Shown here piece after piece: positions 3,735 to 44,852 of a DNA stretch of 64,000 nucleotides. Source of the DNA: Antedon mediterranea (taxonomy: Eukaryota > Animalia > Echinodermata); contig NC_092672.1 of the NCBI RefSeq assembly GCF_964355755.1, positions 21,713,237-21,777,236 on the forward strand. The letters run 5' to 3'. Made by a program: the position numbers and the translations under genes. The first letter of the stretch is position 1; each line of letters opens with the position of its first letter. The notes beneath the pieces were generated by a model. The model did not search any database, was not told the origin of the DNA, and was given only the letters and a program-made list of their open reading frames with translations.

Positions 3735-3738
3735 ATAT

Positions 3739-3752: not shown

Positions 3753-4067
3753 AAAAGGATAATTATTCCTGTATTTTTGATTGTTTTCCTGAGGAATTGG
3801 TGTGTGTGTGATAGAAGACACACTTGTTCCGCATATTATGCAAATTAGTTTCCAAGGAAAAGCATTTGCCGCGTTATTACGGTACGGTGTGTTGCTGTTA
3901 GTATTAATTAATAGGATACAAACATTGGTGTGTCCATGAGGATTTTTATTATAATTGATTGTTAATTAATATTTATTCTGCTTTTGGAAATCGCGAGTCG
4001 ATCTCCAGCGGCGGGTTTCAAACCTTCCAGTTTAGGTATTATAGTTAATAGTAGCATCTGGATTATC

Positions 4068-6246: not shown

Positions 6247-8815
6247 GGGTCGGGGGTTGGGGCCTGACCACCGACTGCCAGCGTTTTGAAGGCTCGTGCG
6301 TTAAGCGGGAAGAGGTACAGGGGTACCCGGGTGGGGATCCTCTGGAGGTGTCCGTGGACATGGTTAGTCTAAAGGAAAGGGGACCATGCATAGTGGTAAA
6401 TAGGGTAGAGTCGGCGAAGGCATTGCATGCCACAGTGTTTGTAAATGTGGTTCACACGGTAGCTGTAGTAGATACCGCTGCTGATTACACAATTCTCTCA
6501 GACCGGGTATTTGCCAAGCTGGATCCCGCCCCACCAATAATTGCAGAACTTTCCTTTAAATTAGCAGGGAGGGGGACTTCTATGCCGGGGTACCGGGTAG
6601 GCCCAGTCACTTTCGCATTAGGTTCCGAAGAGTACACTGAATATATGTACGTGGCGCTGGGAGGGGATTTTTTGATACCCAATCGAGCTCTTATCGATTG
6701 TGGGAAATTATTACTGTCTGTGGGAACAAGTACACTTTCGCTTCGCAAAGAGGCGGGGGAGGTTAGCCCTATGGTTGCTCGGGTGACGGTCGGCAAGCGC
6801 AGGGTGCTTCCTCCGTTTTCGGCGGGATATATACTGTGCCGGTTGGACGTAACAGGGGAGCATCTCCCCGATTATTTCAATGAACCCGACAATCAGGGGA
6901 AAGTTTTAATTCCATCTACCATTCATCGGGGTGGGACTGTTCCCAAAGTTTGCGTGGCGAATCTTACGGACAGATATGTAACACTGAAACAGGGAGAGGT
7001 TGTGGGGAATGCCACTGAGTGGGAGGGTAATCATGCGCCTTCTCAAGGGGGATCGGTGTCCACCGTAGGGGTTGACAGTGCAGAGAAATCCTCCACGGAA
7101 CAGGGTGGGGTACCACAACACATGGAAGGGATGTTAGCGAATGTAAGGAAAACATTGTCCGGTTCCGAGTTCGATAGGGCGAAACAACTGCTCATTGAGT
7201 TCCAAGATGTCTTTGCGGCTCATCAATTTGATATAGGGACCTTGAAGGGTATTGAGCATACTATCGATACGGGGGATGCGCCGCCAATCCGACAACGACT
7301 CCGACCAACTCCCATGCACTTCGCCGGGGAGGAGGAAAAGGAGATCAATAAAATGTTACAAGCAGGGGTGGTTCAGCCTTCAGTGTCCGAGTGGGCCTCT
7401 CCACCGGTGTTGGTACGCAAACGGGATTGCTCTCAGTGCGGTTCTGTATCGACTACCGGGCTCTAAATAATGTTACAAGAAAGGACGCCTATCCTCTACC
7501 CTTGGTACGGGATTGTCTCGACGCTTTGTCGGGCAACACGTGGTTTACCAAATTGGATGCCATATGGGTGTACTGGCAAATTAATATGGGGGAAAAGGAT
7601 AAGAGAAAAACGGCATTCATTACCAAGTACGGGCTATTTGAATTCGTTAAAATGCCGTTCGGGCTATCAAATTGCCCAGCCACGTTTTCACGGGCTATGG
7701 GTTTAGTATTGAGGGGGCTAGCTTGGGACACCGTTCTTGCCTTTCTGGACGACATTGTAGTCATGGGACGGACTTTTGATGAGTCGACCATTTGGGCAAT
7801 GTCCGACATGTTTTAGAACGTTTCCGTGCAAGCAGCCTTAAGCTCAAGCCGAAAAAATGTATCTTTTTCCAACGGGAGGTGGAATTCCTAGGCCGGGTGG
7901 TTGGTGGGGATGCTTTATCGATTTCGGCTACAGATGTTACTGTAGTCCAGGATTGGCCCGTACCTACCTCGGTAAAGGAGTTGCAACAGTTTCTGGGACT
8001 GGCTAATTACCACCGGGAATCCATTGACCATTTTGCCGATAAGGCTGGGCCGTTGTACGGATTACTGGGTAAAGGGGTGCCATTTGCATGGGGGCCCGAA
8101 CAGCAAGCTGCTTTTGCTGGTTTAAAGTTGGCTCTCATTACACCCCCTGTTCTCACTCTTCCTAATACCAGGGACGAATTCATTTTAGATGTGGATGCGT
8201 CAGACCTGGCGTTGGGGGGAGAACTACAAGGTACAAGGGGAACGGGAAAAGGTAATTGCGTATGCTAGCACCCGTCTTACGACGGAGCAACGCAATTACT
8301 GTACGACCCGCAAAGAATTATTGGCGGTGGTGTATTTGACGCGTCATTTTCGCCACTATCTTTTGGGTAGACCTTTCCGGGTTAGGACAGATCATAGCAG
8401 CCTGGTCTGGTTACTGTCGTTTAAAAACCCCCAAGGGCAATTAGCTAGGTGGATAGAGGAACTCAGCCTCTATAATCTTGTCCTGGAACATCGTAAGGGG
8501 GTACTACATGGGAATGCAGATGCGTTATCCCGTCAGGCCAGACCGGTTGACCACTTTGAGCAGAGGGTTGATCCCGGGGATTTGCCTTGCGGGGGATGCT
8601 CTTATTGCGTCAGGGCACATAGCCTGTGGGTCCGTTTCCGGGAGGACGTGGATGACGTAGTCCCGATTTCACAAATCCGGCAAATAGGACCGGACCCTAA
8701 TGAGGAGGGGTTGGTGGACCCAGGTGGGACTACGATCGAGGTCGTACGGGGGTCTTCGTTCTGTGCCAGCAATTTGGCTCAGAACGGTGTGGTTGGGGAT
8801 ACTCCCGTGGCTTGA
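6183..8815 (+). pseudogene. pol: pol, disrupted: aspartic protease, reverse transcriptase, RNase H
   Basis: AVVDTAAD (protease); WASPPVLVRK, RFCIDYRALN, MPFGL, FLDD (RT); DVDASD, RKELLAVV, TDHSSL, ADALSR (RNase H). Spread over four frameshifted ORFs. Confidence 0.93.
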
Positions 8816-9193
8816 GCAATTTCAAGCTAAGGTCCCGATTTAGTGGCTATCAGGGGATGGCTGGAACCGGGGAAACCGCCAGACGGGGAATTATTTAACT
8901 CCAGTCCGGCGACAAACACCTGTGGCTGAATCGGGATTGGTTACGTATCGGGGAGAACGGGTTCTGTTACATAGGGAGGGTATGTGTCAATATTTCGCTG
9001 CTCGTGCGCTCAATATTGACCGATACAACTTAACAAGTACGTGCGCCGATTGTTTTTAGTTATACTTGCACCAGGCGCACGGCCGGGTGCCATGTTTATT
9101 ATGTCAAAAGGAGCTAGCGAATCATGTGAACCCAGTCTTATGGGCCGGGTAGCAACGCTAGCCGGGTTACCCCCGGTCGACTACCTCCTTTTC

Positions 9194-9206
9194 AAAACCG
9201 GGGGAG
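9194..9206 (+). promoter_or_regulatory. Polypurine tract
   Basis: AAAACCGGGGGAG immediately 5' of the 3' LTR. Confidence 0.75.
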
Positions 9207-9524
9207 TGTAGTATCGACCCCAGGGGGTGGGCAATAAATGAATGGCCTGAACCTACCAACCGTCTGCGGGCGCCTGGATCCAGTACAAGTGACGTAGACG
9301 TCCGGGCGCCGACATGCGCCAACGGTTGGGGCAGACCAGAAATCGGGGCAGTTAGCCACGGAGTTTGCCGTGGTAACAAGAATACGGCTAGTTAGCAGTA
9401 TCAGCAGTGATAGAAACTGAGGATATATCTTGGATTAATATATTACATTGGATTTGCCCCAAGCGGGAAGAAGTTCCCAGATAGGTAAGTCGATCTGGTC
9501 ACTTTTATAAACGGGGTGAATACA
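9207..9524 (+). repeat. 3' LTR
   Basis: Direct repeat of 3439-3734 with TG...CA ends. Confidence 0.93.
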
Positions 9525-9559
9525 ATAACATTCTAAATATAGTTATCGGAACGTCGATC

Positions 9560-9695
9560 GGTGAACCACAATGAACTAGTAGTAGTAAATAGGCTTAGGC
9601 AAACTTCTAAAAATAAAACGTCCAGTCGAACCAGAAACAATGCTGACAACAAAAGATCGTTAACATTCTAAATATAGTTATCGGAACGTCGATCG
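9560..9695 (+). repeat. Second copy of a ~135-bp tandem duplication; the first copy (3330-3438 plus 9532-9559) is split by the Gypsy element
   Basis: GGTGAACCACAATGAACTAG...GATCGTTAACATTCTAAATATAGTTATCGGAACGTCGATCG is present intact here and interrupted upstream. Confidence 0.9.
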
Positions 9696-15158: not shown

Positions 15159-16040
15159 CATTAACCACTAATGTATAGATGGGCTCTTAAGCTTAACATC
15201 CATAATCTCATTAACCACTAATGTATAGATGGGCTCTTAAGCTTAACATCCATAATCTCATTAACCACTAATGTATAGATGGGCTCTTAAGCTTAACATC
15301 CATAATCTCATTAACCACTAATGTATAGATGGGCTCTTAAGCTTAAAGACCCCTTCCCTGCAATTTTGGACGTTTTTTGGAAAATAATACATATATATCA
15401 CTTTAAAAACATTAAACCATGTCATTCCTTGTCTTAAATGTACGTTTTATGGTAAATTATGATAAAAAGTGAGAAAAAATGCACTACCTAAGTAGCTCGC
15501 GGCGATCGACCTCTCGTGGACGGTCTTAGGCCTAGCCTGGCTAGGCTTAGTTTTGTAGGCCTAGCTGGTAAACATCGGTAACGTGCGAACATCGTACGCT
15601 AGCTATATACCTAGCCTGACGTTGTATAGTTGCTGCATTAATTGTCTTTCTATTTTTGCCAGACTCCGTTGATACAAATTGGGGAAAACCCGGTATTTTC
15701 GCTGAAAAGTTAGGAGTCTTCCATTTGTTTTGGCCTCACGATCGATCGAAAAGTGGGCGAATTACAGGTGAAAAACAAAAATATCAATCCGCGCGCAATG
15801 CATTTTGGGATTTATAGCGGGCCGCTATAATTATTAAAATCGACTTATTTTTCACATTTTTAACCGTTTAAAGACGAAAAAAGTTATCGCAATAGGACCA
15901 TATAGTATTATTTTTACATTAAATATAGTTTGTGATCTTAAATTAGATCTAAAAAACGTAGGGAATGGGGCTTTAACATCCATAATCTCATTAACCACTA
16001 ATGTATAGATGGGCTCTTAAGCTTAACATCCATAATATCA
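15159..16040. repeat. 50-bp tandem repeat (about 5 copies) interrupted by a MITE
   Basis: TTAACCACTAATGTATAGATGGGCTCTTAAGCTTAACATCCATAATCTCA starts at 15161, 15211, 15261, 15311 and 15991. Confidence 0.95.
15347..15972 (+). mobile_element. Non-autonomous DNA transposon with TTAA TSD (Kolobok-like MITE), copy 1
   Basis: TTAA on both sides, imperfect AG(A/C)CCC..TTCCC TIRs, near-identical inverted copy at 19684-20312. Confidence 0.85.
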
Positions 16041-18331
16041 TGATTCAATATTCTTATTTAAAAACATTATGATGTCTTAATTTATAAGAATGTTTTCAAT
16101 CTAAATATTGGGTAGTCTAAAGTATGTGATCAACAATTTTTATCATTTAAATAATATTAGAAATTATTTAAAATGTCATGGCAAATTGTAATTTTAATTA
16201 AAAATTACCTAATAATATGTAATAACCTTAAATAAATATAGCTATGTTTTAACAGTTTTTTAACTGTAAAAATATTGTGATTTCCTGGTTCCAAACAGTA
16301 TGGTCATTATTCACTAAATATACTTTGATAACAAATAGTGCATCAACATTTATATTAAATATTGTCTGCTACTCATATCACAATCATTGCAGAATATTGG
16401 TAGGCTTACTTGCCACTTTGTAGTTTTCATGGCAAGTTTGAAATTCATTTAAAAATTGAACTTAACATAATAAAAACTCTGTTATATATTTTGTTTTCAG
16501 ACTTCAAATAGAAATTGTATTTTCTCCCACAAGTTGAAGAAATGTATTGCATTATTAGATGTAAAGGAATAGTGTAAAAAAAGAGAAATCACAGCCTTAA
16601 TTCTTAAGCCACAAAAAGAGGATTCCAAAAACAAAATTATAAAAAGATGAGAATTATTTATCTTATGAATTAACATTAAAAATGTCTTTATAGATGAAAA
16701 ATTGTGGTTTATTTGTTATGCCTTTTATAGACCTAATATTTGTTTGTTTTATCTTCAATACCCATATTCTAGGTTTCTATAGTAATTATTATCATTCAGT
16801 TTATATCATCAGTTCATATGTAATAACATTCTTCTACTGAGAACCATCAATGCATCACTTTTTCCACTTACTGTACATCAAAAGCATCACTACATTAATT
16901 TTTATGATGAACTATTACAATTTTCTTTTAAGCAAATTATTCTAATTAAAGCAATTTAAGATTCAGTTAAATACATAACATGCTAAATTGTCAACTCATC
17001 ACTAAAATACTTTGATAATAACAAATAGTATTATGAAGAGGGAAACTTGAATGCCACTATTATTCCAAAATAGTGATAGGCTGCTGTGTAGTGTTTATAT
17101 GACACGTTCAGTTTTGAAATTCACTAGTAAATAATAAACCTTCTTAGTTTCTGTCTATAATAGTTACTGCTAATGCAGCATATTAAAGTTTAAATTTCTA
17201 AATTAGATAATTTGAGTACATTTTTTGAGATGAGTTGGGGTTATCCCGGTGTACTAGTACATCACAGCCACTGATCATAACTGGGCCCTCTTGGAGACAA
17301 GTCTTTGACTGAAGAGGTTGCCCAGTATAAACAAAATATTTTAATTTCAATGATGACACGTCAACCAATAGTTTTGATCAAAACAAATTTAAGGTAAATG
17401 TACTGTATATTACTTTACATAATCTACTCGTCCTAATTTGCTAAACATTTTAGCAGCTAGAAATATTGCCACATAATTTTTTCAAAAAATGTGTAGTTTT
17501 TGTTTTCGTCCAATGTTGAGAGTGGCCATAACAACAATGAAATCCATAAATTATAAATAATTACAACATTGTTTTTCATATACATGGACAATGGTGTTTA
17601 AAACCCTTTGATTTAACCCCACATTTCATAGGATACGTACATACAGTACAAACAATGGCATAGACTCATTAGGATGTTTTTTCACAGACAGAATTAACTT
17701 GGATTTATAGATTCAACAGCAAAGTGAAGTTCTCGTTCATGTTTTATGCCACAAATTCAGACCACTGGTTCCTTCTGAGCATGCATAATACAATTGTGTC
17801 ATCATCTCCAATGAATCGTTGCTTACAAGAAATCAAAGTGGTTCTGAAGCGGGTTGATTTGACAGATTTTCATGTTAATTCATTGCTCCTTGCTTATTGT
17901 TAGTAATATTGTAATACGTCAACACAACTTCTGTAACACAAGCCAAACTAGTGCTGATCTATTGATACACTAAGAAATCTTCTGACAGACTTCGAGCTGG
18001 TTTATATCCATTGTTAATCTAATTTTTTAAAATTTTGAATTGTTTGACTTTGGCATAACCATCTGGTATGCAAATAACCATCTGGTATGCAAACACAATA
18101 ATCAAAGGCAGTGTCCTCATTATCACATTACCTGTACAAATGGTTGCACTTTATTATTAGGAATTTAAAAGAGAAATAAATGTTACCTTTGAGTTTGTTT
18201 TTTTAAATTACAGTATAACAAAGTTTACTAAAAATACAGTATGACTCTGAGAATAAGAACATGATGTTTGGTATGATAATTATCTATACTATGTGAAATA
18301 TAATAACCTCTATGTGCTTAATATTTTAACC

Positions 18332-18400
18332 CAAGCTGGTCACAACCTCATATGTATGTGCCTGATCAAGGCAGGATCAGATGTGAATGTTGCAAGCGAT
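18332..18400 (+). pseudogene. Partial ankyrin exon (QAGHNLICMCLIKAGSDVNVASD); 5' part and acceptor not recognisable
   Basis: C-terminal two-thirds of an ankyrin repeat ending at a phase-0 GTAAGT donor. No AG 99 bp upstream of the donor. Confidence 0.7.
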
Positions 18401-19683
18401 GTAAGTCATATATTTAACAAAATATTTTATTTTTTTTTCCAATTTAAAAAGTCTAGATTAATTTTTCACAAAATCTACAAATTGGAGTAGTAAAGATTTT
18501 GTCTGATTTAATGTTGTAATTATAGTTACAACATTTTCACTCATCTTAAACCTTATTCATTATTTTAATGATTTACTTACATTAATACATATACAACAAA
18601 TACAATACATTAGTTTATATTTTTGAATGACAGGTTTGTCAAATATAATTGTGGCACATTTCAACAAATTACAGCATATAATTACTGTAGATAAAACCAA
18701 ATTACATTTGCTCATAAGAGCATTATTGTTCTTCGGAATGTGCCTTGGTCTTTGCTCTATCGCCCTACTGTACACCATCTCTTGTAGTATAATATCCCAC
18801 TACCCGGCCTGTGTTAAATATAAAGGCCTCCATGTATACTAATTCATATTATATTTACCTGTTTCAAATGAAAAAAATGGATAGCTAAATTGTTTTAAAT
18901 TTAAAGAAATGCAGAGAATAATTTGCAAGCATCATAATTATACAGTATTTGAACATAATGAACATAACTACCTAAAAGGTAGTCTTCTTTATTGTACCTT
19001 TTTAATATCCTAGATGTGGGTAAAGTACTTTAGAAGAATCCTCTCTCACTTCTCATCTGTGTTGGCATACATATTTTATTTGTTTTATTCTTTGACTTTA
19101 TTTATATATTATCTTTCATTTACATTTAAGCATGCCTAGCCATTATTTGAAAACATTTTCTTATCTTATTTTATGCAATGTTATTGTTATTAATTATATT
19201 CTTCAATTTAAAGTTATGATGTTGATGTTTTCAACAACAGCTAGCTATAGAAAGAAAGTTGATTGAATATAATTATATGTAAATTTTTCAGAAAATTCAG
19301 TCGATGATCACTGGTTTAAAAAAAATATAAATTTAATACAGTATTTAAAATGAATTAATGAAACAAATTATGTATTTCTTCAATGGCTGCAAATGGTAAC
19401 TGGCTGCAGACCTCTTAATTTATTTTAAAGTCAGGTTTTTCAAAATGTACCCAACTTTGTCAATAAATGATCCAATATTGTGAAATAAGTAAATTTATTC
19501 TAATTTTAGCTTTTAATTATGTGAAAATCAGTCTCATACTTATTTTTTTTATCACGAGAGCATAACGGTGTATTACTATCAGCAAGTTTTCAAAGGAAAT
19601 AATGTTCCTCAAATTGTCTAGACTATAAAACAAGTCCTATAGTATAACAATTTGTCCTGATCAATTTTAAATTTGAGTGTTAA

Positions 19684-20312
19684 AGCCCCCTTCCCCACGT
19701 TTTTTAGATCTAATTTAAGATCACAAACTATATTTAATGTAAAAATAATACTATATGGTCCTATTGCGATAACTTTTTTCGTCTTTAAACGGTTAAAAAT
19801 GTGAAAAATAAGTCGATTCTAATAATTATAGCGGCCCGCTATAAATCCCAGAATGCATTGCGCGCGGATTGATATTTTTGTTTTTCACCTGTAATTCGCC
19901 CACTTTTCTATCGATCGTGAGGCCAAAACAAATGGAAGACTCCTAACTTTTCAGCAAAAATACCGGGTTTTCCCCAATTTGTATCAACGGAGTCTGGCAA
20001 AAATAGAAAGACAATTAATGCAGCAACTATACAACGTCAGGCTAGGTATATAGCTAGCGTACATGATGTTCGTACGTTACCGATGTTTACCAGCTAGGCC
20101 TACAAAACTAAGCCTAGCTAGGCTAGGCCTAAGACCGTCCACGAGAGGTCGATCGCCGCGAGCTACTTCGGTAGTGCATTGTTTCTCACTTTTTATCATA
20201 ATTTACCATTAAAACGTACATTTAAGACAAGGAATGACATGGTTTAATGTTTTTAAAGTGATATATATGTATTATTTTCCAAAAAACGTCCAAAATTGCA
20301 GGGAAGGGGGCT
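19684..20312 (-). mobile_element. Non-autonomous DNA transposon with TTAA TSD (Kolobok-like MITE), copy 2
   Basis: Reverse complement of 15347-15972; TTAA at 19680-19683 and 20313-20316. Confidence 0.85.
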
Positions 20313-20579
20313 TTAAATAAAACTTGTCTGCTAAATCTAAAACTTAGTTTTCTTCATCTCTCTGAAATAAAATATTGTTTGAATGCCTTTCTGATGAATT
20401 TGACAGTAAAACAAATGTAATGTCATTGCAAACCATTGTTTATATCACCATGGTTATAAGGACAGTTTTAAAGAAAACTGAATAGGCCAAATTTGTTTTG
20501 TTACGTTTTGTGTCCAGGATTTGAATGTACAAAATATGTGAATGATGGTCGTACAGCTCAGATGTGTTTACATACCATA

Positions 20580-28908: not shown

Positions 28909-29649
28909 TTAAGTCATAAATTAATGTTTGTATTGAGAACCATTCAGGATCAGAATCCTAAATTTTATTCTTCATTTTAGTTTAAAATTCTTGTTCCTCA
29001 AACAGAAGCACAAAATGTAACCTAAGAATGGAATTATTTTATTATGGTATAGAGGCTACTTGTTAATACCTTCATATTTTTTTCTTATTTGAAATTTTTA
29101 TTAAATTGTCTAATTATTCTACATCTTGAATTTAACATATTTATACCATCAAGATAGTGCAGACAAGTCAACATTAACAACAACAAAATAAACAAGTTTA
29201 AAATGCTATTTTTTGGGCTATTAAAAAGCTGCAGTTAATCTAGCAATCATTTGGTGGATTACTGTAATTTAGTTATTAATTCTCTATTAAATAAATGTCA
29301 GGAAAACTATAGCGCTTAGATTGCTTAGTGCTTGAAGTTGCTTGTTGGTATGACAACTACAACTAATGCAGATCCTGCATTGTATCTGTCTCAGAATATC
29401 CTTGTTTAATCAATCTTTTTAAAACTTTTTTAATCATTACATTAGTAATGCTAATTTTAATACACGATTATAATATTATTGAATGCATTTCATGCATTTC
29501 TCATTTGTTTCATGCTGCACAATTTTGATGTGTCAGGCACGTTTTTGATGGTAATGGTATCTTGGACCTTGTGTGAATGGATAAAAGAGTAGTAAAAGTG
29601 GGACTTCAGCCCAAAGTTAACCTTGATGTATTTCCTGATTACGTAATAT

Positions 29650-29830
29650 CCGCCAGGTGTTTCTAATGAAGGTCGTTTCCGCCAGGTGTTTCTAATGAAG
29701 GTCGTTTCCGGCAGGTGTTTCTAATGAAGGTCGTTCATTTCCTGTTATTGTATTAGTTATGTAACTTCCTGCAGGTGTTTCTAATGAAGGTCGTTCTTTT
29801 CCTGGTTTCGTACTAGTTATGTAATTTCCG
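29650..29830 (+). repeat. Subterminal tandem repeats (29-bp x3 running into 60-bp x2); mirrored at ~43980-44160
   Basis: CCGCCAGGTGTTTCTAATGAAGGTCGTTT units directly visible. Confidence 0.92.
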
Positions 29831-30541
29831 CATAATAGTCCAATTTGACCAAAAATGATTTACATGAAAAAACTATACTTTAAACAAAAAATCAAATTGA
29901 TTGCAAGCTGCTGGAATTGGGGTTTTGGTTGAATGCCATTACAGTTTGTTTTTTTTTGCGGAGAGGTTATCCTGCAGGTCTAGTCAGTCGTGGTTATAAC
30001 AATGGTTAACAATGGGGATAGTATAAGACAATAGAGTATATCATTTCACTAGAATTGTTATATAGATTTGTTATATATTAATATACATTATAATATAAAA
30101 TTAATAAATATTAAATAAAAATGATATGGTAATTTAGTTGCTTGTGATGAGAACAAAATGGTTTACAATGGTTGAAGTCAATAGGTGTTATGTTTCGGAT
30201 TATAATACAATGGTTAACATAGGGTAAGGAAGTGAGACAATATAGTTTTTGTAAGATTTGAATTAGTCATAGAGTCAATAAAGATGCACCTGGTTAATTC
30301 AAACTAGTTAATTGAGGTTTTTGCTTGATGTATGCCGACATAATCCAAAGACATAAGTTATTTGATCCGGATATTATAACAATGACTAAAACAAAAAGAT
30401 AAGAATGAATGAAGTTAAATAATAAGTATGTCTTGATTGAACTATACCGACAGGTAATTAACCATCTTCCGGATTTGTTAACAAAGGGGGATAAATCGAA
30501 AGCAGTGACACGGGGTGTTTGACATACTAAAGTTTAATGTG

Positions 30542-30755
30542 TGACGTCATGATGTTAGTTTCACTATTTTTGATGATTTTTGTTTTCCAATGTTTAGTTT
30601 TATTGTCATTTAAATTGGTTACGTTTACAAAAAGATTTCTTTGTTTCCTTTTAAAATAAAACAAAAAGTGGGTAAAGAGGGACGCTACTGACACCATGCA
30701 TAAATTTTTTTAGTGTGTATAAATATATGGGTAAATTTATAGTGAACTCATCAGT
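30542..30755 (+). promoter_or_regulatory. Putative Pol II promoter of pPolB (mirror ~43024-43237)
   Basis: TGACGTCA (CRE) at 30542, TATAAATA at 30718, TCAGT initiator-like motif at 30751, ATG at 30817. Confidence 0.55.
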
Positions 30756-30816
30756 ACCAGCTTACAACGCACTAAACTCACTTCCACATTCTTGATTAAG
30801 AGAATTTTATTTTACA

Positions 30817-33800
30817 ATGGCTCATTACGAATCATCATCATCATCTTCCGATTCTAACGATAGCTTGTTTATCGAATGCCAGAGAGCAGTAGAAGCTATC
30901 GTTAGTTTATCGCGAAACAATATCGAAAATATCGATACCGACGAGGTTATCCCCGATGTTGGACTACTAGAAGATTTCGTATAATGACCAGGATCTTGAT
31001 TTAGATGTTAGCCAGAGTGTTTCTGAAGCCGATAGCCTCTCACTTTCGGATATTTGTAATAACGCTATTGAGATAGTGCAGGAGCTATCGGCTAATTTGC
31101 GTATTGATGACATAGAAGTAGGTGTTTGTTTTATTTTATTTTTTACGTAATATTTATTTTACCGTGTATAATTCTAAAAAAGTAGATTGTAATTGGGGGC
31201 ATTTACAAAGTGTTTCTGCGTTTTCGGTTTATATACGTTTTCCTTTCTAATTTATCTAATTATTTTTATTTCTGTATAGTACGGTGTTGGTGCTCACACC
31301 AAATGTTTGAGTTTGAGAGGAAATGTCGAGATTAATGATTCAGCGGAGTCTTCGATTATTGAGGTAACTATCGTTTTATTTTCTTTACTACTGTTGTTGT
31401 TGTTGTTGTTGTTGTTGTCGTACAACGTCTTTTATTTCTTTTTCTTTACTGTTTTTCTCTTTTTGTTTTCAGCCTGTACCCATACAGTACGGAAGGGGCG
31501 TTAATAGAAAGAGGCTCAGAATCGAAGACGGGGAAGAAGAAGAAGAAGAAGAATTTGCCGACATTGATACTGTTGAAGACGAGGACCTTAACCTTGATGA
31601 GGTAGAGTTGAATCACTTCTGTAGAATCGTTCAAGTAGCTGATAGGTATAATCAACGTTTTAACGCGACTATTAGCGATTTTTTAGTAAATTTTTTAATA
31701 TTGATCATATAAGTTTAGAGGTGTTTCTGCCCACACTGTATCGAATTTTCGAGCATGTCGTCGATAATCTCTGCGTTAACGTGCATGTCGACGACATGAT
31801 TCGAATAGTCATACAGGCTGAGGGGTTAGATTCACCTATCTCTATCCCTTTTGGACGGAGGGGCCATCTTACGGCTGACGTTATTTTTGCAGCCATTATG
31901 AAGGTCCTTCAGTCCAAAACGGATATTTTTATTAATAACAAATTTAAATTTAACGTTCTTCACATGAGAATGCCTAGGGGTGGGGGCTATAGAAGAAACG
32001 GTATCGACATATTGTTAAATGCTAAATGTATAATTAAGATTAAGAATGATGATAACGAAACTATCTGCTGCGCACGCGCTATTGTTACGGGTATTTCTAT
32101 GCTCGAAGACAAAATTAACAACGTGGCTAGATGGAATAACGTTAGGCAAGGTAGGGGTCAGCAAAAAATAGCCGCCCTTCATTTACTTAGAGATTCGGTG
32201 GTTAGGGAGCAGACATGCGGCATCGAGGAAATAAAAAAGATGCAATCAAAATTACCAAATTACCAAATTATTGTCATTTCAAAAGACAATTTAAATTCTG
32301 TCATTTTTAGCGGCGATTATAGAAAGAAGCAGATATATCTTTATCATCATTCTAATCATTACGATCTCATAACCACAATGACAGGTTTTCTAAAATTTGA
32401 CTATTTCTGCGATAGATGTCATAAGGGGTATAATCACAAATACCAACACAATTGTCAATTTACGTGCGTGCTGTGTAAGCACAATGACTGCCCCTCTTCT
32501 AATTCTTTTGAAAATAGAGAGAGTAGAATAGAATGTAGAGAATGTAATAGATTTTTTAAGGATAAGCAATGTTTCACCAATCATAAAAAATCTCCTGATT
32601 CTAAAGTTTCAGTATGTGGCAAAATTAAAAATTGTTCAATTTGTAATAGGATCGTTCAAAAAGATCACAATTGTCAAAACCGCTTTTGTAGAATTTGTAG
32701 GACTTTCGTTTCATACGATCATCAATGCTACATGGAACCGGTTGTAGCCCCTAAGCATACTGAAAGAAAGTTTAAGAATCAGGAGGCCCGTAACAGAGCT
32801 GTCACCAAATATTTCTTTTTTGATTTCGAATGCACGCAAGATACAGGCGAACACAAACCAAATTTATGCGTTCTTCAAAAAACTTGTCTTAATTGTATCG
32901 ACGGTGCTAATGATTCTGCCGATTGTGACGTGTGTGGGGATAAAACAGTGGTTTTTCACGGGGGTCTGCATGCGAAGATTTCTGCAATTACGTATTCAAG
33001 ATTACAAATTTAACGAAAATATTACGTGTATCGCTCACAACTTCCAGGGTTATGATAGTTACTTCGTGCTCAACTACCTGTACGAAAACTCCATTGTACC
33101 GGATGTAATTGCTCGCGGTGGTAAACTTATTTCGATTAGGACTAAAGAAACGAGCATTCGATTCATCGATTCCCTTTCATTTCTACCCATGCCTCTATCC
33201 AAATTGCCCAAAACTTTTGGCATCTCCGAACTTAAAAAGGGTTACTTTCCTCATTATTTTAATTCTTTAGAAAACCAAAATTACGTAGGTCCTTACCCCG
33301 ATTCTTCAAATTATTCCCCCGATAAAATGACTACTTCAGGTCGAGAATCTTTCTTTAAATGGTACAACCAGAAAATTGAAAGTAATCAAGTATTAATTGA
33401 TCTTAAAAAAGAACTCGTCGAGTATTGTATCAGCGATGTAGATATTCTCAGAAAGTGTTGTCTTACTTTTAGACATCTTTTTTTGAAAGTAACTATATCG
33501 CCGAAAAACCCTCTACTCGGCGGTGTTGACCCCTTTTCAAATAATTTAATGACAATTGCCTCAGCGTGTAACCACGTATTTTCTAGAAATTTTTTAAAAC
33601 CGTCCACCATCGCTCTATTTCCACCATCAGGGTATCTAACAACCGTTAACCATTCTCACTCTAGCATGGAATGGCTGTGCTACGAGTCGCATAAAAAGGG
33701 GGTCTTTATCCATCATGCTAGAAATGGAGGGGAAAAATTGTTTGGGCCTTACTTCGTCGACGGCTCATGTTTAGAAAGCAAAATAATTTTCGAATTTATG

Positions 33801-35408
33801 GGTTGTTTTTTCCACGGGTGCCAAGATTGTTATAGACCCGATTCCATTAATCCCTTCAATAACGAGACCATGTTGGAATGCTTTGTCAAGACAAGCAAGA
33901 AATCACGGTTTCTGAAGGAACAATTTCCGGATTTCGAATACGTCGAAATTTGGGGGCACGAATGGAAACGGATCAAAAAATCGTTGGCCCCAAACATTAA
34001 ATCTATCGTCTCCAAAGTTCCTTTAATTAGGCAAACTTTGAATCCAAGAGACGCGTTTTTCGGTGGGAGGACTAATGCCAGTTGTTTGTTCTATAAGGTA
34101 AAACCGGGTGAAGAAATTAATTACATAGATTATACTTCCTTGTACCCTTATGTAAATAAATACGGTACCTACCCCGTAGGGCATCCTGCAATCAATGATC
34201 GCAACGACATGTCCACGGATATCAACGATTATTTCGGCTTGATAAAGTGTACAATCGAAGCGCCTAAAAAATTATTCCATCCGGTCTTACCTTATAGATC
34301 AAACGGTAAATTAATGTTTGCTCTCTGTAGAACATGCGCCGATTCCCAACAACAAACCGCTTGCAATCATTCCGGTACAGATAGAGAATTTACGGGTTCT
34401 TGGGCAACGATCGAAGTTGCTAAAGCCGTGGAAGTTGGGTACGAGATACGTAAAGTTCACGTAGTATGGCACTTTAAAAATAAAAGCGCGTACTCTGCAG
34501 ATTCTCCCTCGTCCGGCCTATTTGCCTCTTACATTAACACCTTTTTAAAATTGAAACAAGAAGCTTCGGGTTGGCCTGAATGGTGTAAAACGCCCGAAGA
34601 TAAACAAAAATACATTTCGGACTATCGAACCGTAGAAGGTATCGACTTGAATCATGACGACATTGCGTACAATCCTGGGCTTCGATCTCTGGCCAAATTA
34701 ATGCTAAATAGTTTTTGGGGTAAATTTGGCCAGCGTGAAAATCTCACGAAAATTAAATATACGCAAGATCCTAACGAGGTTTACGATATTTTATCGAACC
34801 CTGGGATAACCGTTCATGACATAAATTTTGTTAATGATGATTTGGCGGAGGTAAAATACGAGGACGAGGAACAATTTGTAGAAGTTAACCGAAAGGTTAA
34901 CGTTGTCATTGCCGCATTTACCACAGCGTTAGCGCGTTTAAAATTGTACGAGCTGTTGGAACAATTACAGGAGCGCGTCCTGTATTATGATACCGACAGC
35001 GTAATCTTCGTATCAAAACCCGGGGATTGGGACCCTCCCCTGGGCGACTATTTGGGTCAGTTAACGACCGAGGTCGATCCTAAAGATGGTAAATTCATCG
35101 AGTCCTTCGTTTCTGGGGGGCCTAAGAACTACGCCTATAAATTGGATACGGGGAAGACCGTTTGTAAAGTTAAGGGTTTTACCCTTAACTTTACAAACGC
35201 TCAGAAAATTAATTTTGACACCGTCTCCAATATGGTAAGGGGTGTTGGCCCCGATACAATTAAGACGGTTGAGAAGAATCGCATAACGCGCAAGCCAAAA
35301 ACACGAAAGATAGTCAACGAAACATCGACTAAAGACTATCGAATCGTGTACGACAAAAGAATTATTATCGAAAATTATCGCACAGTTCCTTACGGGTATG
35401 TTTGGTGA
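30817..35408 (+). pseudogene. pPolB: Protein-primed DNA polymerase B, left-arm copy with 3 frameshifts (exons 30817-31117, 31280-31363, 31473-35408)
   Basis: Mirror of the right-arm gene. 2-bp deletion near 30982, 1-bp loss in the T-run near 31691, 1-bp loss in the G-run near 32960. Confidence 0.9.
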
Positions 35409-35644
35409 ATCACGGCCATAAATTTCTTTTTAAAAATGTAAACATACTTTGTTATAGATAATTATTTGTTACTCTTTATACATTCTTTACCGTACTCTCC
35501 CTCTTTTTATAGTTTGAACAAAATATATTTGTAGTTTTAATGTAAATATTTTTATATCTGTTTTAATATAAATAATTTTTATACCCGTTTTTTAAAGTCG
35601 AATTTTTGCTGGTTAAGTAAATATATTTTTAAATATTTTTCCGC

Positions 35645-36140
35645 TTGATTTTCTTATGTCGATACCGTTTCTCTTTTTGTAGATTAAGTACATATATTTC
35701 GTAATTTTAATTTAAATATTTTACCACTTGAATTCTTATGTCGATACCGTTTCTCCTTTTTGTAGATTAAGTAAATATATTTTTCCACTTGAATTTCTTA
35801 TGTCGATACCGTTTCTCTTTTTGTAGATTAAGTAAATATTGTTATAACTGTTTTAATGTTAATAAATTTTATACTTATAATATCTATTTTTTTAGATTAA
35901 GCAATATTTTTGTAATTTTAATTTAAATATTTTACCACTTGAATTCTTATGTCGATACCGTTTCTCTTTTTTTTTTGTAGATTAAGTAAATGTTGTTATA
36001 ACTGTTTTAATGTTAATAAATTTTATACTTATAAAGTCGATTTTTGTAGATTAAACAATATTTTTGTATTTTCAATTTAAATATTTTTCGACTTGAATTC
36101 TTATGTCGATACCGTTTCTCATTTTGCGGATTAAGCAAAT
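35645..36140 (+). repeat. Degenerate repeat array, 5 copies of CTTGAATTCTTATGTCGATACCGTTTCTC...AGATTAAG (mirror ~37638-38132)
   Basis: Conserved core at about 35655, 35737, 35799, 35948 and 36102, with AT-rich, mutually related linkers. Confidence 0.9.
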
Positions 36141-36636
36141 ACATTTTTGTAAAGTTATTTTTGTTTTATACGAAATTTGAAATAAATTTAATCACTGTAC
36201 TTGTTTTATAATATATATACTTGTCTGTTTCTTAATGTCGTCGTTGGATACGATAAATTAAAAAATTACAGTCACCATTACGTACGTCTTTTGTTGTTGT
36301 TGTTTGTTACCGTCATCGTTTATAGATTTATTCTTTATAAGTATGTCGATTAATTTCAGAATCAAAAACTTGTTACATAAGAAAAAAAAAAAATGGTCAT
36401 GAAATTCGTTAAATAAAAAATAATTTATCAAGAATCTTTTTACATAAATTTTATTTTATCATTAAATTTGTTACATAAAAATAATTTGTCAAGAATCTTT
36501 TTGCATAAAATTTATTTTGTCATTAAGTTTGTTACATAAAAAAAAAAAAAAATAATTGTTTCATGAATCTTGTTACATTTTTTAAATTTTTGTTTTCAAC
36601 TACTTATATGAAAATTCAAGTTAAGAACGCAGTATA

Positions 36637-36800
36637 ATGACAATGACTGAGCGTTTAGTAACACCTTTCACCGCGGTGATTAGCGGACAGACTTCCTCCG
36701 GTAACTCGGTATTTGTTAACAATCTTTTAGAAAATAATTACTTTAAAAAAATAAAACAAGTCGTTTGATGATATGACATAGTGTTATGGCGAATATCAAA
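36637..36800 (+). pseudogene. 5' stub of the Polinton DNA-packaging ATPase, left arm
   Basis: MTMTERLVTPFTAVISGQTSSGNSVFVNNLLENN...KQVV** and then, frameshifted, CYGEYQ. Matches the Polinton ATPase N-terminus as I recall it (PFT..isGptgsGKt.fv..ll...wCYGewQ); the Walker A Lys is Asn. Confidence 0.75.
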
Positions 36801-36979
36801 CTTAGTTAGAGAAGTAAATACTGTTTGTGTTTACATGCGTGTCATAGTAGAGTTTGTAATTACGTTTTTTACACAACTAACGACAACATAATAATACATT
36901 TCTATATTGAAAAAACGTAATTACAAACTCTACTATGACACGCATGTAAACACAAACAGTATTTACTTCTCTAACTAAG

Positions 36980-37143
36980 TTTGATATTCGCCATAACACT
37001 ATGTCATATCATCAAACGACTTGTTTTATTTTTTTAAAGTAATTATTTTCTAAAAGATTGTTAACAAATACCGAGTTACAGGAGGAAGTCTGTCCGCTAA
37101 TCACCGCGGTGAAAGGTGTTACTAAACGCTCAGTCATTGTCAT
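36980..37143 (-). pseudogene. 5' stub of the Polinton DNA-packaging ATPase, right arm
   Basis: Mirror of 36637-36800 with the same inactivating lesions. Confidence 0.75.
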
Positions 37144-38365
37144 TATACTGCGTTCTTAACTTGAATTTTCATATAAGTAGTTGAAAACAAAAATTTAAAA
37201 AATGTAACAAGATTCATGAAACAATTTTTTTTTTTTATGTAACAAACTTAATGACAAAATAAATTTTATGCAAAAAGATTCTTGACAAATTATTTTTATG
37301 TAACAAATTTAATGATAAAATAAAATTTATGTAAAAAGATTCTTGATAAATTATTTTTTATTTAACGAATTTCATGACCATTTTTTTTTTTCTTATGTAA
37401 CAAGTTTTTGATTCTGAAATTAATCGACATACTTATAAAGAATAAATCTATAAACGATGACGGTAACAAACAACAACAACAAAAGACGTACGTAATGGTG
37501 ACTGTAATTTTTTATTTTATCGTATCCAACGACGACATTAAGAAACAGACAAGTATATATATTATAAAACAAGTACAGTGATTAAATTTATTTCAAATTT
37601 CGTATAAAACAAAAATAACTTTATAAAAATGTATTTGCTTAATCCGCAAAATGAGAAACGATATCGACATAAGAATTCAAGTCGAAAAATATTTAAATTG
37701 AAAATACAAAAATATTGTTTAATCTACAAAAATCGACTTTATAAGTATAAAATTTATTAACATTAAAACAGTTATAACAACATTTACTTAATCTACAAAA
37801 AAAAAAAGAGAAACGGTATCGACATAAGAATTCAATTGGTAAAATATTTAAATTAAAATTACAAAAATATTGCTTAATCTAAAAAAATAGATATTATAAG
37901 TATAAAATGTATTAACATTAAAACAGTTATAACAATATTTACTTAATCTACAAAAAGAGAAACGGTATCGACATAAGAAATTCAAGTGGAAAAATATATT
38001 TACTTAATCTACAAAAAGGAGAAACGGTATCGACATAAGAATTCAAGTGGTAAAATATTTAAATTAAAATTACGAAATATATGTACTTAATCTACAAAAA
38101 GAGAAACGGTATCGACATAAGAAAATCAAGCGGAAAAATATTTAACAATATATTTACTTAACCCGCAAAAATTCGACTTTAAAAAACGGGTATAAAAATT
38201 ATTTATATTAAAACAGATATAAAAATATTTACATTAAAACTACAAATATATTTTGTTCAAACTATAAAAAGAGAGAGAGTACGGTAAAGAATGTATAAAG
38301 AGTAACAAATAATTATCTATAACAAAGTATGTTTACATTTTTAAAAAGAAATTTATGGCCGTGAT

Positions 38366-41300
38366 TCACCAAACATACCCGTAAGGAACTGTGCGATAAT
38401 TTTCGATAATAATTCTTTTGTCGTACACGATTCGATAGTCTTTAGTCGATGTTTCGTTGACTATCTTTCGTGTTTTTGGCTTGCGCGTTATGCGATTCTT
38501 CTCAACCGTCTTAATTGTATCGGGGCCAACACCCCTTACCATATTGGAGACGGTGTCAAAATTAATTTTCTGAGCGTTTGTAAAGTTAAGGGTAAAACCC
38601 TTAACTTTACAAACGGTCTTCCCCGTATCCAATTTATAGGCGTAGTTCTTAGGCCCCCCAGAAACGAAGGACTCGATGAATTTACCATCTTTAGGATCGA
38701 CCTCGGTCGTTAACTGACCCAAATAGTCGCCCAGGGGAGGGTCCCAATCCCCGGGTTTTGATACGAAGATTACGCTGTCGGTATCATAATACAGGACGCG
38801 CTCCTGTAATTGTTCCAACAGCTCGTACAATTTTAAACGCGCTAACGCTGTGGTAAATGCGGCAATGACAACGTTAACCTTTCGGTTAACTTCTACAAAT
38901 TGTTCCTCGTCCTCGTATTTTACCTCCGCCAAATCATCATTAACAAAATTTATGTCATGAACGGTTATCCCAGGGTTCGATAAAATATCGTAAACCTTGT
39001 TAGGATCTTGCGTATATTTAATTTTCGTGAGATTTTCACGCTGGCCAAATTTACCCCAAAAACTATTTAGCATTAATTTGGCCAGAGATCGAAGCCCAGG
39101 ATTGTACGCAATGTCGTCATGATTCAAGTCGATACCTTCTACGGTTCGATAGTCCGAAATGTATTTTTGTTTATCTTCGGGCGTTTTACACCATTCAGGC
39201 CAACCCGAAGCTTCTTGTTTCAATTTTAAAAAGGTGTTAATGTAAGAGGCAAATAGGCCGGACGAGGGAGAATCTGCAGAGTACGCGCTTTTATTTTTAA
39301 AGTGCCATACTACGTGAACTTTACGTATCTCGTACCCAACTTCCACGGCTTTAGCGACTTCGATCGTTGCCCAAGAACCCGTAAATTCTCTATCTGTACC
39401 GGAATGATTGCAAGCGGTTTGTTGTTGGGAATCGGCGCATGTTCTACAGAGAGCAAACATTAATTTACCGTTTGATCTATAAGGTAAGACCGGATGGAAT
39501 AATTTTTTAGGCGCTTCGATTGTACACTTTATCAAGCCGAAATAATCGTTGATATCCGTGGACATGTCGTTGCGATCATTGATTTCAGGATGCCCTACGG
39601 GGTAGGTACCGTATTTATTTACATAAGGGTACAAGGAAGTATAATCTATGTAATTAATTTCTTCACCCGGTTTTACCTTATAGAACAAACAACTGGCATT
39701 AGTCCTCCCACCGAAAAACGCGTCTCTTGGATTCAAAGTTTGCCTAATTAAAGGAACTTTGGAGACGATAGATTTAATGTTTGGGGCCAACGATTGTTTG
39801 ATCCGTTTCCATTTGTGCCCCCAAATTTCGACGTATTCGAAATCCGGAAATTGTTCCTTCAGAAACCGTGATTTCTTGCTTGTCTTGACAAAGCATTCCA
39901 ACATGGTCTCGTTATTGAAGGGATTAATGGAATCGGGTCTATAACAATCTTGGCACCCGTGGAAAAAACAACCCATAAATTCGAAAATTATTTTGCTTTC
40001 TAAACATGAGCCGTCGACGAAGTAAGGCCCAAGCAATTTTTCCCCTCCATTTCTGGCATGATGGATAAAGACCCCCCTTTTATGCGACTTGTAGCACAGC
40101 CATTCCATGCTAGAGTGAGAATGGTTAACGGTTGTTAGATACCCTGATGGTGGAAATAGAGCGATGGTGGACGGTTTTAAAAAATTTCTAGAAAATACGT
40201 GGTTACACGCTGAGGCAATTGTCATTAAATTATTTGAAAAGGGGTCAACACCGCCGAGTAGAGGGTTTTTCGGCGATATAGTTACTTTCAAAAAAAGATG
40301 TCTAAAAGTAAGACAACACTTTCTGAGAATATCTACATCGCTGATACAATACTCGACGAGTTCTTTTTTAGGATCAAATACTTGATTACTTTCAATTTTC
40401 TGGTTGTACCATTTAAAGAAAGATTCTCGACCTGAAGTAGTCATTTTATCGGGGGAATAATTTGAAGAATCGGGGTAAGGACCTACGTAATTTTGGTTTT
40501 CTAAAGAATTAAAATAATGAGGAAAGTAACCCTTTTTAAGTTCGGAGATGCCAAAAGTTTTGGGCAATTTGGATAGAGGCATGGGTAGAAATGAAAGGGA
40601 ATCGATGAATCGAATGCTCGTTTCTTTAGTCCTAATCGAAATAAGTTTACCACCGCGAGCAATTACATCCGGTACAATGGAGTTTTCGTACAGGTAGTTG
40701 AGCACGAAGTAACTATCATAAACCTGGAAGTTGTGAGCGATACACGTAATATTTTCGTTAAATTTGTAATCTTTGAATACGTAATTGCAGAAATCTTCGC
40801 ATGCAGACCCCCCGTGAAAAACCACTGTTTTATCCCCACACACGTCACAATCGGCGGAATCATTAGCACCGTCGATACAATTAAGACAAGTTTTTTGAAG
40901 AACGCATAAATTTGGTTTGTGTTCGCCTGTATCTTGCGTGCATTCGAAATCAAAAAAGAAATATTTGGTGACAGCTCTGTTACGGGCCTCCTGATTCTTA
41001 AACTTTCTTTCAGTATGCTTAGGGGCTACAACCGGTTCCATGTAGCATTGATGATCGTATGAAACGAAAGTCCTACAAATTCTACAAAAGCGGTTTTGAC
41101 AATTGTGATCTTTTTGAACGATCCTATTACAAATTGAACAATTTTTAATTTTGCCACATACTGAAACTTTAGAATCAGGAGATTTTTTATGATTGGTGAA
41201 ACATTGCTTATCCTTAAAAAATCTATTACATTCTTTACATTCTATTCTACTCTCTCTATTTTCAAAAGAATTAGAAGAGGGGCAGTCATTGTGCTTACAC

Positions 41301-42962
41301 AGCACGCACGTAAATTGACAATTGTGTTGGTATTTGTGATTATACCCCTTATGACATCTATCGCAGAAATAGTCAAATTTTAGAAAACCTGTCATTGTGG
41401 TTATGAGATCGTAATGATTAGAATGATGATAAAGATATATCTGCTTCTTTCTATAATCGCCGCTAAAAATGACAGAATTTAAATTGTCTTTTGAAATGAC
41501 AATAATTTGGTAATTTGGTAATTTTGATTGCATCTTTTTTATTTCCTCGATGCCGCATGTCTGCTCCCTAACCCCCGAATCTCTAAGTAAATGAAGGGCG
41601 GCTATTTTTTGCTGACCCCTACCTTGCCTAACGTTATTCCATCTAGCCACGTTGTTAATTTTGTCTTCGAGCATAGAAATACCCGTAACAATAGCGCGTG
41701 CGCAGCAGATAGTTTCGTTATCATCATTCTTAATCTTAATTATACATTTAGCATTTAACAATATGTCGATACCGTTTCTTCTATAGCCCCCACCCCTAGG
41801 CATTCTCATGTGAAGAACGTTAAATTTAAATTTGTTATTAATAAAAATATCCGTTTTGGACTGAAGGACCTCCATAATGGCTGCAAAAATAACGTCAGCC
41901 GTAAGATGGCCCCTCCGTCCAAAAGGGATAGAGATAGGTGAATCTAACCCCTCAGCCTGTATGACTATTCGAATCATGTCGTCGACATGCACGTTAACGC
42001 AGAGATTATCGACGACATGCTCGAAAATTCGATACAGTGTGGGCAGAAACACCTCTAAACTTATATGATCAATATTAAAAAAATTTACTAAAAAATCGCT
42101 AATAGTCGCGTTAAAACGTTGATTATACCTATCAGCTACTTGAACGATTCTACAGAAGTGATTCAACTCTACCTCATCAAGGTTAAGGTCCTCGTCTTCA
42201 ACAGTATCAATGTCGGCAAATTCTTCTTCTTCTTCTTCTTCCCCGTCTTCGATTCTGAGCCTCTTTCTATTAACTCCCCTTCCGTACTGTATGGGTACAG
42301 GCTGAAAACAAAAAGAGAAAAACAGTAAAGAAAAAGAAATAAAAGACGTTGTACGACAACAACAACAACAACAACAACAACAACAGTAGTAAAGAAAATA
42401 AAACGATAGTTACCTCAATAATCGAAGACTCCGCTGAATCATTAATCTCGACATTTCCTCTCAAACTCAAACATTTGGTGTGAGCACCAACACCGTACTA
42501 TACAGAAATAAAAATAATTAGATAAATTAGAAAGGAAAACGTATATAAACCGAAAACGCAGAAACACTTTGTAAATGCCCCCAATTACAATCTACTTTTT
42601 TAGAATTATACACGGTAAAATAAATATTACGTAAAAAATAAAATAAAACAAACACCTACTTCTATGTCATCAATACGCAAATTAGCCGATAGCTCCTGCA
42701 CTATCTCAATAGCGTTATTACAAATATCCGAAAGTGAGAGGCTATCGGCTTCAGAAACACTCTGGCTAACATCTAAATCAAGATCCTGGTCATTAAATAC
42801 GAAATCTTCTAGTAGTCCAACATCGGGGATAACCTCGTCGGTATCGATATTTTCGATATTGTTTCGCGATAAACTAACGATAGCTTCTACTGCTCTCTGG
42901 CATTCGATAAACAAGCTATCGTTAGAATCGGAAGATGATGATGATGATTCGTAATGAGCCAT
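38366..42962 (-). CDS. pPolB: Protein-primed family B DNA polymerase, open 3-exon gene (42962-42660, 42497-42414, 42301-38366), predicted 1440 aa
   Basis: ExoI FFDFECTQD, ExoII HNFQVYD, ExoIII YCISDVDIL; Pol motifs DYTSLYP, KLMLNSFWGKFGQ, YYDTDS, GPKNY. Two GT-AG phase-0 introns join the ATG exon in frame to the 1266-aa ORF. Confidence 0.95.
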
Positions 42963-44852
42963 TGTAAAATAAAATTCTCTTAATCAAGAATGTGGAAGTG
43001 AGTTTAGTGCGTTGTAAGCTGGTACTGATGAGTTCACTATAAATTTACCCATATATTTATACACACTAAAATAATTTATGCATGATGTCAGTAGCGTCCC
43101 TCTTTACCCACTTTTTGTTTTATTTTAAAAGGAAACAAAGAAATCTTTTCGTAAACGTAACCAATTTAAATGACAATAAAACTAAACATTGGAAAACAAA
43201 AATCATCAGAAATAGTGAAACTAACATCATGACGTCACACATTAAACTTTAGTATGTCAAACACCCCGTGTCACTGCTTTCGATTTATCCCCCTTTGTTA
43301 ACAAATCCGGAAGATGGTTAATTACCTGTCGGTATAGTTCAATCAAGACATACTTATTATTTAACTTCATTCATTCTTATCTTTTTGTTTTAGTCATTGT
43401 TATAATATCCGGATCAAATAACTTATGTCTTTGGATTATGTCGGCATACATCAAGCAAAAACCTCAATTAACTAGTTTGAATTAACCAGGTGCATCTTTA
43501 TTGACTCTATGACTAATTCAAATCTTACAAAAACTATATTGTCTCACTTCCTTACCCTATGCATAGAGTTGATAACAACTCCCTGCCCTATGTTAACCAT
43601 TGTATTATAATCCGAAACATAACACCTATTGACTTCAACCATTGTAAACCATTTTGTTCTCATCACAAGCAACTAAATTACCATATCATTTTTATTTAAT
43701 ATTTATTAATTTTATATTATAATGTATATTAATATATAACAAATCTATATAACAATTCTAGTGAAATGATATACTCTATTGTCTTATACTATCCCCATTG
43801 TTAACCATTGTTATAACCACGACTGACTAGACCTGCAGGATAACCTCTTCGCAAAAAAAAACAAACTGTAATGACATTCAACCAAAACCCCAATTCCAGC
43901 AGCTTGCAATCAATTTGATTTTTTGTTTAAAGTATAGTTTTTTCATGTAAATCATTTTTGGTCAAATTGGACTATTATGCGGAAATTACATAACTAGTAC
44001 GAAACCAGGAAAAGAACGACCTTCATTAGAAACACCTGCAGGAAGTTACATAACTAATACAATAACAGGAAATGAACGACCTTCATTAGAAACACCTGCC
44101 GGAAACGACCTTCATTAGAAACACCTGGCGGAAACGACCTTCATTAGAAACACCTGGCGGATATTACGTAATCAGGAAATACATCAAGGTTAACTTTGGG
44201 CTGAAGTCCCACTTTTACTACTTAAAAGGCAAACAACTTTGGGGAATACATTTTTGTTATACTGATGTTGTCACAAAAGTTTGTAGTTTTTCTGATTTCA
44301 GGATATGTTATTTGTAAAGTAATGGCATAAAATTTAAACTGAATTCAAATTCCCAGGGATGATTAAATACTTTAACATTTTCCAACCACAATTCTGTATC
44401 AAGGTGCGATGTACATACATAACATGGCTCCCTGCAAAGATAAATTATGAAACTGACAGTATCATCACTTTTGCTTTGCATACACAACAATAGTGGCTCC
44501 TTGACGGGGAATTGATTACAATAATATTAACTACTGACATTCAATGATTGAAGTTTCTCCTTCATCTAATGTTCAAGCAGTATTGTTATAATTTTTTTAT
44601 TATTGAGAATTGTCCTATAATTTCACACATAAATTAATTATTCCCTCAGATTTGGAATCAAAATAAAATATACATTGACTTAGTAATGTATTTAATAATT
44701 GCCCTGATTCAATACACAACTATTAACTTAGATTGTATACTGGCTTTTTCTTTTATCCAAATGTACATATGAAAAACATAAGCACTCATTTTGAGGACTT
44801 GTGATGAGTTGAAAAACAAATAACAATATTATCAAGTTAAAGTTCAATACAA

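Follow-up and report, generated by a model that had tools for sequence, protein, structure and literature searches.

The Polintons, or Mavericks, of animals carry an (AGT)2 or (AG)3 motif at their ends, and a polymerase gene followed inward by a packaging-ATPase gene is described as their usual arrangement (PMC8097293), together with a target-site duplication of 5-8 bp and a size of 13-25 kb (PMC10748475). Their polymerases are reported to carry terminal-protein and protease domains of their own (PMC11161782). Most vertebrate copies are described as defective, and the core genes of cyprinid Polintons, capsids included, as being under strong purifying selection (PMC8097293). A concerted loss of the major capsid protein, the protease and the ATPase has been reported for nine of 72 Polintons and was presented as a step from virus towards transposon (PMC4028283), and palindromes go unmentioned in the excerpted text of PMC6431247. 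Capsid-less Polintons are thus already published; the fully palindromic form was not found in the literature searched, in which no paper on it came to light, and a prior description may exist in the founding papers of 2006-2007 or in Repbase.

The yeast linear plasmid pGKL1 has palindromic derivatives, and the 5′ snap-back genomes of AAV reportedly offer an analogue of inverted-dimer ends. A further analogue of the snap-back-type defective genome is adenovirus SYREC (PMC2396429).

The locus described here is a palindromic Polinton/Maverick insertion of 14.6 kb (29588-44222) within a 64-kb window, that is, the whole stretch of DNA that was analysed. Its two arms enclose a short loop (Table 1) and are unlike at 31 of 7273 aligned bases (0.43%) and at 10 indels, one 31-nt stretch (43562-43592) being present in the right arm only. 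The mirror symmetry is exact up to the terminal base at both ends, where terminal inverted repeats with the (AGT)2 motif abut the 6-bp duplication TAAAAG, within the size range of Polinton target sites, and the sequence beyond is unrelated on the two sides. The predicted hairpin fold of the axis region repeats the information of the inverted repeat. In its end motif, its inward polymerase-ATPase module, its target duplication and its size the insertion is like the Polintons of animals, but it differs from them in being mirror-doubled, in having only a broken quarter of the ATPase gene, and in that a search for remnants of integrase, protease and capsid found none. With the capsid-less Polintons it shares the loss of virion genes and the retention of the polymerase, whereas, unlike those elements as the excerpted source describes them, its relic catches the loss of the ATPase part-way, the integrase is absent as well and the whole is a palindrome (PMC4028283).

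Table 1. Features of the palindromic insertion, with positions in the 64-kb window.
Feature	Position	Strand	Basis or remark
Target-site duplication TAAAAG, left copy	29582..29587	+	Empty-site-like contigs, runs X1 and X9
Left palindrome arm, 7283 nt, AGTAGT start	29588..36870	+	Inverted repeat
Subterminal tandem repeats, 29/60-nt	29649..29830; mirror 43981-44175	none	
Left-arm polymerase gene	30817..35408	+	Broken by short deletions; start mapped from right arm
Left-arm polymerase deletions	1 base at ~31691, ~32960, ~32998; 2 bases at ~30982		2-base loss in predicted first exon
AT-rich tandem arrays, 154/61/31-nt units	35628..36543; mirror 37231-38240		Between polymerase and ATPase relic
Left ATPase relic, 5′ quarter	36637..36799	+	Profile, protein search, alignment to relative
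Left relic, altered Walker A Lys codon	36703-36705	+	
Left relic, frameshift in A-run	near 36745-36756	+	
Left relic, stop at Trp codon	36779-36781	+	
Left relic, truncation	after 36799	+	
71 nt without ATPase similarity, common to both arms	36800..36870; mirror 36910-36980	+	
Unique loop at axis, 39 nt	36871..36909	none	
Right palindrome arm, 7313 nt, ACTACT end	36910..44222	-	Inverted repeat
Right ATPase relic	36981..37143	-	Same lesions plus private Walker A Gly-codon change (37080)
Right-arm polymerase gene	38366..42962	-	Long frame open, private replacements
Right-arm predicted exons	42962-42660, 42497-42414, 42301-38366	-	All junctions phase 0
Target-site duplication TAAAAG, right copy	44223..44228	+	Both-side comparison

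Each arm carries a predicted gene for a protein-primed family B polymerase pointing inward (PF03175, E 2.9e-43), for which 3611 of 6613 candidates were classed as putative relatives. Marine invertebrates account for most of the named relatives, and of those found a crinoid protein is the closest: P0122 (XP_033114874.1, Anneissia japonica), 69-70% identical to the polymerase of the window. In this gene model the end of a Polinton polymerase runs directly into the start of an ATPase, probably because gene prediction fused two adjacent Polinton genes. With the polymerase alone as query, none of 150 stretches of viral_contigs was related; the polymerase alignment did find relatives.

A long open frame of 1347 codons is found in the right arm only, and the frameshifts are confined to the left arm, exactly as an earlier, sequence-only reading of this DNA had it. 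All four are losses of one or two bases in short one-letter runs and may reflect slippage or assembly error. As proof of selection, which that reading had seen in it, the open right-arm frame had to be given up. The arms differ in the long frame by 4 silent and 12 replacing changes, and over codons 85-1347, where one silent change before codon 85 is excluded, by 3 silent and 12 replacing changes, a ratio of ~1.0; a frame would stay free of stops after ~8 random changes with P 0.68, and three frameshifts would all fall in one arm with P 0.25. Four replacements private to the right arm (codons 180, 563, 680 and 774) bring in a residue found in none of 29 aligned relatives, codon 563 lying within what we take to be exonuclease motif II. 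Comparison of the arms indicates that they have drifted neutrally since they were last alike and that this copy is a young fossil.

Inward of the polymerase gene, 1.2 kb away and on the same strand, lie the remains of the ATPase gene. A frame of 43 codons from the ATG at 36637 reads PFTAVISGQTSSGNSVFVNNLL...QVV up to a double stop, with CYGEYQ next in another frame, and its mirror image occupies 37143-36981 of the minus strand. A profile of nine ATPases encoded near related polymerases gave only two matches in six frames of the 64 kb, namely the mirror relics (i-E 2.6e-6 and 5.9e-5), and the 43-residue query retrieved four matches among 1.84 billion proteins, the best being P0122 (E 4.6e-7) and the other three being set aside, by eye, as unrelated repetitive proteins. 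Aligned to P0122, the relic is 79% identical over 33 aa (36652-36750) and 67% identical over 15 aa (36755-36799), with E 4e-12. A word-indexed protein search with the 43-aa stub gave seven candidates, none of them relevant, an atlas search gave only leads below 0.9, and Pfam returned weak P-loop hints for the left arm (E 0.045-0.07) and none for the right. Judged by similarity, 36637-36799 and its mirror are the relic of a Polinton packaging ATPase, beyond chance, and the kinship with Polinton ATPases that the sequence-only reading had proposed holds both against the profile and against the relative. Similarity places the relic among the A32/FtsK-like enzymes, whose reference members here match PF04665 in 7 of 8 cases, but with ~54 broken codons it is no intact packaging ATPase: the Walker A motif GxxxxGK[ST] and the enzyme body downstream are absent, and the lysine of the GK kept in 12 of 12 fetched ATPases is altered in both arms.

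The lesions common to both arms are the Walker A Lys change, the frameshift, the stop and the absence of about three quarters of the ATPase gene, and the only place in 36560-36870 at which the arms part is the Walker A Gly codon, where the right arm has one further change. Most of what had been read from the letters alone was borne out here, including the short frame and CYGEYQ, the lysine change and the frameshift in either arm. The exception is the double TGA, which had been counted as a shared lesion and proved to be an out-of-frame reading: the frameshift lies upstream of it, in the A-run, the ATPase frame across it reads Phe-Asp-Asp-Met, matching P0122, and the true in-frame stop of the relic falls at a conserved Trp codon. 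Because these lesions are common to arms that differ at so few bases, the sequences support the view that the ATPase was dead before the arms last became alike.

Similarity to ATPases stops 91 nt short of the axis, with 71 nt of the arm remaining. Against the next 60 residues of ten ATPases, 36800-36909 scored within shuffle range in all ten cases (19-140 of 200 shuffles reach the score), whereas the stub, as a control, outscored 200 of 200 shuffles against all ten. The proposal that the fold-back lies inside the ancestral ATPase gene is not supported by this comparison, which puts the fold-back point outside recognizably ATPase-like sequence; a very decayed later piece of the gene could conceivably lie within the 71 nt. 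As ATPase likeness ends at 36799, truncation and fold-back would be separate events. The 39-nt loop has no second copy in the 64-kb window.

Profiles of 41 non-polymerase ORF clusters from 93 related loci matched only the relics and antisense shadows of the polymerase. Neither a profile of 12 integrase-cluster ORFs, in six frames, nor one of nine cysteine-protease-cluster ORFs gave a match, and the capsid-candidate clusters had none in the window; a single weak Pfam match (E 0.029) underlies the label of major capsid protein, and no cluster was labelled minor capsid. These absences are stated from profiles because default blastx against the ORFs of the loci missed even the stub; the arms have no room for a further long frame. 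Since integrase, protease and an intact ATPase are all lacking, the element does not count among the autonomous Polintons; it is best classed as a defective derivative, functioning in the manner of a snap-back genome. Inverted repeats longer than 158 nt occur in none of the 93 fetched loci, which are mostly short contigs, and two of the 93 have repeats of at least 100 nt. Four Polinton-like loci, L029 (14566-15090), L041, L065 and L070, carry an ORF matching SLATT_1 (PF18181; E 1e-9 for L029), a two-membrane-helix effector domain.

Elsewhere in the window, 3329-9670 holds a broken Ty3/Gypsy-type LTR retrotransposon with gag, protease-like and RNase H matches, whose direct repeats (3329-3720 and 9207-9670) have two parts in swapped order. 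A 5-kb element at 15343-20316, with 639-nt inverted repeats 97.8% alike and no internal frame of 100 codons, adjoins a 50-nt tandem array (15159-15346). A dispersed short repeat with a GTCT/GTCG microsatellite core has three copies, at 12988, 13598 and 44876, and the window has no tRNA genes.

The stretch, or part of it, is carried by 11 of 13 listed sequencing runs under three organism labels from five studies, none of the listed carriers being an RNA dataset and one sample, S1, being perhaps the source of the window; in X10-X13 the share is small or nil. Contigs from four runs (X1, X5, X8 and X9, one per study) were compared over 36800-44500 at a likeness of at least 85%. The occurrence under three labels reflects either close relatives or recent transfer. 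X1 alone contributed 577 aligned contigs, a family with many variants, and the eight listed X8 pieces differ by 72 letters over ~4.8 kb (summed by hand). In at least three X1 and at least two X9 records, letters like those of the left flank (by eye) stand directly before the right flank, the arrangement that an unoccupied site with a single TAAAAG would show. X1 and X9 contigs skip the 31 nt that are private to the right arm. X9 has zero cover over the palindrome centre, and its contigs have only the last ~300 bases (43918-44222) in common with the element before other sequence follows, a stretch that may be the true terminal-repeat length of non-palindromic relatives.

Over the relic, X8 record 17 (37059-37453) has exactly two other letters and, because both lie outside the Walker A Lys codon, carries the altered codon. 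The single X5 contig there, among the matches listed, has four differences and no indel, and the Trp codon has changed further in both X5 and X8 without becoming Trp again. In X1 a contig whose A-run differs in length supplies most of the depth at that place, so the frameshift is not family-wide; such a contig would not carry the frameshift, which is therefore younger than the truncation. Contigs of X1, X5 and X8 track the non-ATPase sequence beyond the relic and leave the sequence of the window at about 36852/36928; past 36927 those of X5 and X8 enter other sequence, and one from X1 returns to repeat an earlier stretch in tandem. It follows that the truncation is shared and that non-palindromic relatives exist. 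In an X1 contig the 48-nt stretch 36928-36975 is repeated in tandem with 39 other letters between, a spacer as long as the loop of the window and faintly like it by eye; the fold-back may lie inside a repeat module. No contig bridges the loop among the best 32 of 1310 pieces and the best 15 of 37 joints.

Selection was sought in the best 40 of 463 substitution rows, ranked by support, of which 26 fall in the long frame; after four right-arm private rows and one before codon 85, 21 were counted. Both arms agree at these 21 differences, and 13 of them are silent, the expected fraction being 0.21-0.27 (p about 4e-4, with 4e-5 to 8e-4 as the range over transition weights 1-4, some contigs being ~88% alike), and the silent share exceeds that between the arms (3/15; Fisher p 0.019). 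A post-hoc subset of five sites, at which high-depth X1 contigs are unlike the window and X5 and X8, is silent at 5/5. The selection on the polymerase that the sequence-only reading had posited thus fails between the arms, where change looks neutral, and finds backing at the level of the lineage, where differences to contigs of other runs are mostly silent. Because the rows were chosen by support, some contigs are only ~88% alike, and none of these short contigs joins a polymerase variant to the dead ATPase, the comparison gives support, not proof, that the polymerase was under purifying selection in the lineage after the ATPase had died. At four further sites both arms are unlike nearly all aligned contigs (3 replacing, 1 silent), which fits an aged copy or later arm-to-arm conversion equally. 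In all seven listed arm differences the right arm departs from the other runs, the right arm being the reference, so that left-arm changes could not appear.

Taken together, the reading favoured with moderate confidence is that the ATPase died in a multi-copy parent lineage with a constrained polymerase, and that a copy folded back beyond the relic and was inserted by a borrowed integrase. One end, the polymerase and the start of the ATPase, which stand at the locus in the usual Polinton order, are doubled head to head. The lesions and the truncation would be older than the insertion, as one contig under another organism label shows for the Walker A codon and as would presumably apply to the rest, and the polymerase would have stayed under purifying selection after the loss of the ATPase. 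One polymerase gene may suffice for end-primed copying, to judge by the terminal-protein and protease domains of relatives; during such strand-displacement copying the strand would have turned back 71 nt past the relic, giving two identical ends and a product like a snap-back defective viral genome. To judge by the target duplication, integration would have taken place in trans with an integrase from another element, and the arms would then have drifted neutrally, as their differences show. One end with the replication gene doubled as an inverted dimer, and a probable dependence on a helper, are points of likeness to snap-back defective genomes; unlike these, the element is fixed in a chromosome, has a target duplication and retains a full-length polymerase frame in one arm.

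The further claim of selection for replication only goes too far and is not supported: an integrase is suggested by the target duplication, nothing is seen of the parent's far half, and a helper could supply the ATPase. Loss of the ATPase likewise need not mean that the DNA was never packaged, because the packaging enzyme could come from a helper. A bolder reading, advanced only tentatively, would make the palindrome a mobile polymerase-only replicon that is copied in the animal nucleus like a linear plasmid, with its polymerase selected, and that spreads across several species by means of a borrowed integrase; on this equally tentative footing the losses would have been stepwise, packaging first and then everything past the ATPase, and the relic would record their order.

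It is unlikely, though less so than the remaining alternatives, that the palindrome was never mobile, an ordinary ATPase-dead element having inserted first and its far half having later been replaced by a mirror copy, through a template switch or fold-back repair in the chromosome, or its arms converted. The target duplication would survive such an event, non-palindromic relatives exist (the X5 and X8 contigs that continue past 36927, the tandem jump in X1), and the arms share changes nearly absent from the aligned contigs, in proportions that look neutral (3 replacing, 1 silent); a mirror symmetry that holds up to the last base at either end argues against it. That the silent excess stems from intact, capsid-encoding helper Polintons, with the dead-ATPase copies as passengers whose polymerase went unselected after the death of the ATPase, is judged improbable. 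Integration would indeed require a helper, polymerase and relic share no contig, and depth over the relic is ~3x that over the polymerase in X5 and falls below it in X1, so that the two are not always found together, but one contig in X5 and two in X8 make up all the relic depth at 85% likeness, beside polymerase contigs ~98.5% alike, and the post-hoc X1 subset is wholly silent. An assembly artefact, in which the insertion is real but one family end was placed in it twice, the left-arm frameshifts being errors of the consensus, is the least credible explanation and very improbable: the confinement of those frameshifts to one-letter runs, the many family variants and a loop crossed by none of the pieces listed would suit it, while the 31 substitutions between the arms, the distinct flanks that fit one target site and the seven of seven listed arm differences in which the right arm, as the reference, departs from the other runs speak against it.

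On the reading that the ATPase decayed in a parent lineage before a copy folded back and was inserted, the locus bears on the question of whether Polintons persist only as viruses or also as intracellular replicons. If true, a lineage whose ATPase died at a dated step and whose polymerase is still constrained would be the opposite of the selection on all core genes described so far (PMC8097293), a case open to test by plain comparison of copies. Screens in corals and nematodes are described as requiring capsid and ATPase genes or five core genes, and thereby discard elements of this kind by design, so that elements like this one would be missed (PMC11131425, PMC10748475). The relic ties, at one locus, a polymerase-only palindrome to an ordinary Polinton and puts the losses in order, a small piece of a larger story.
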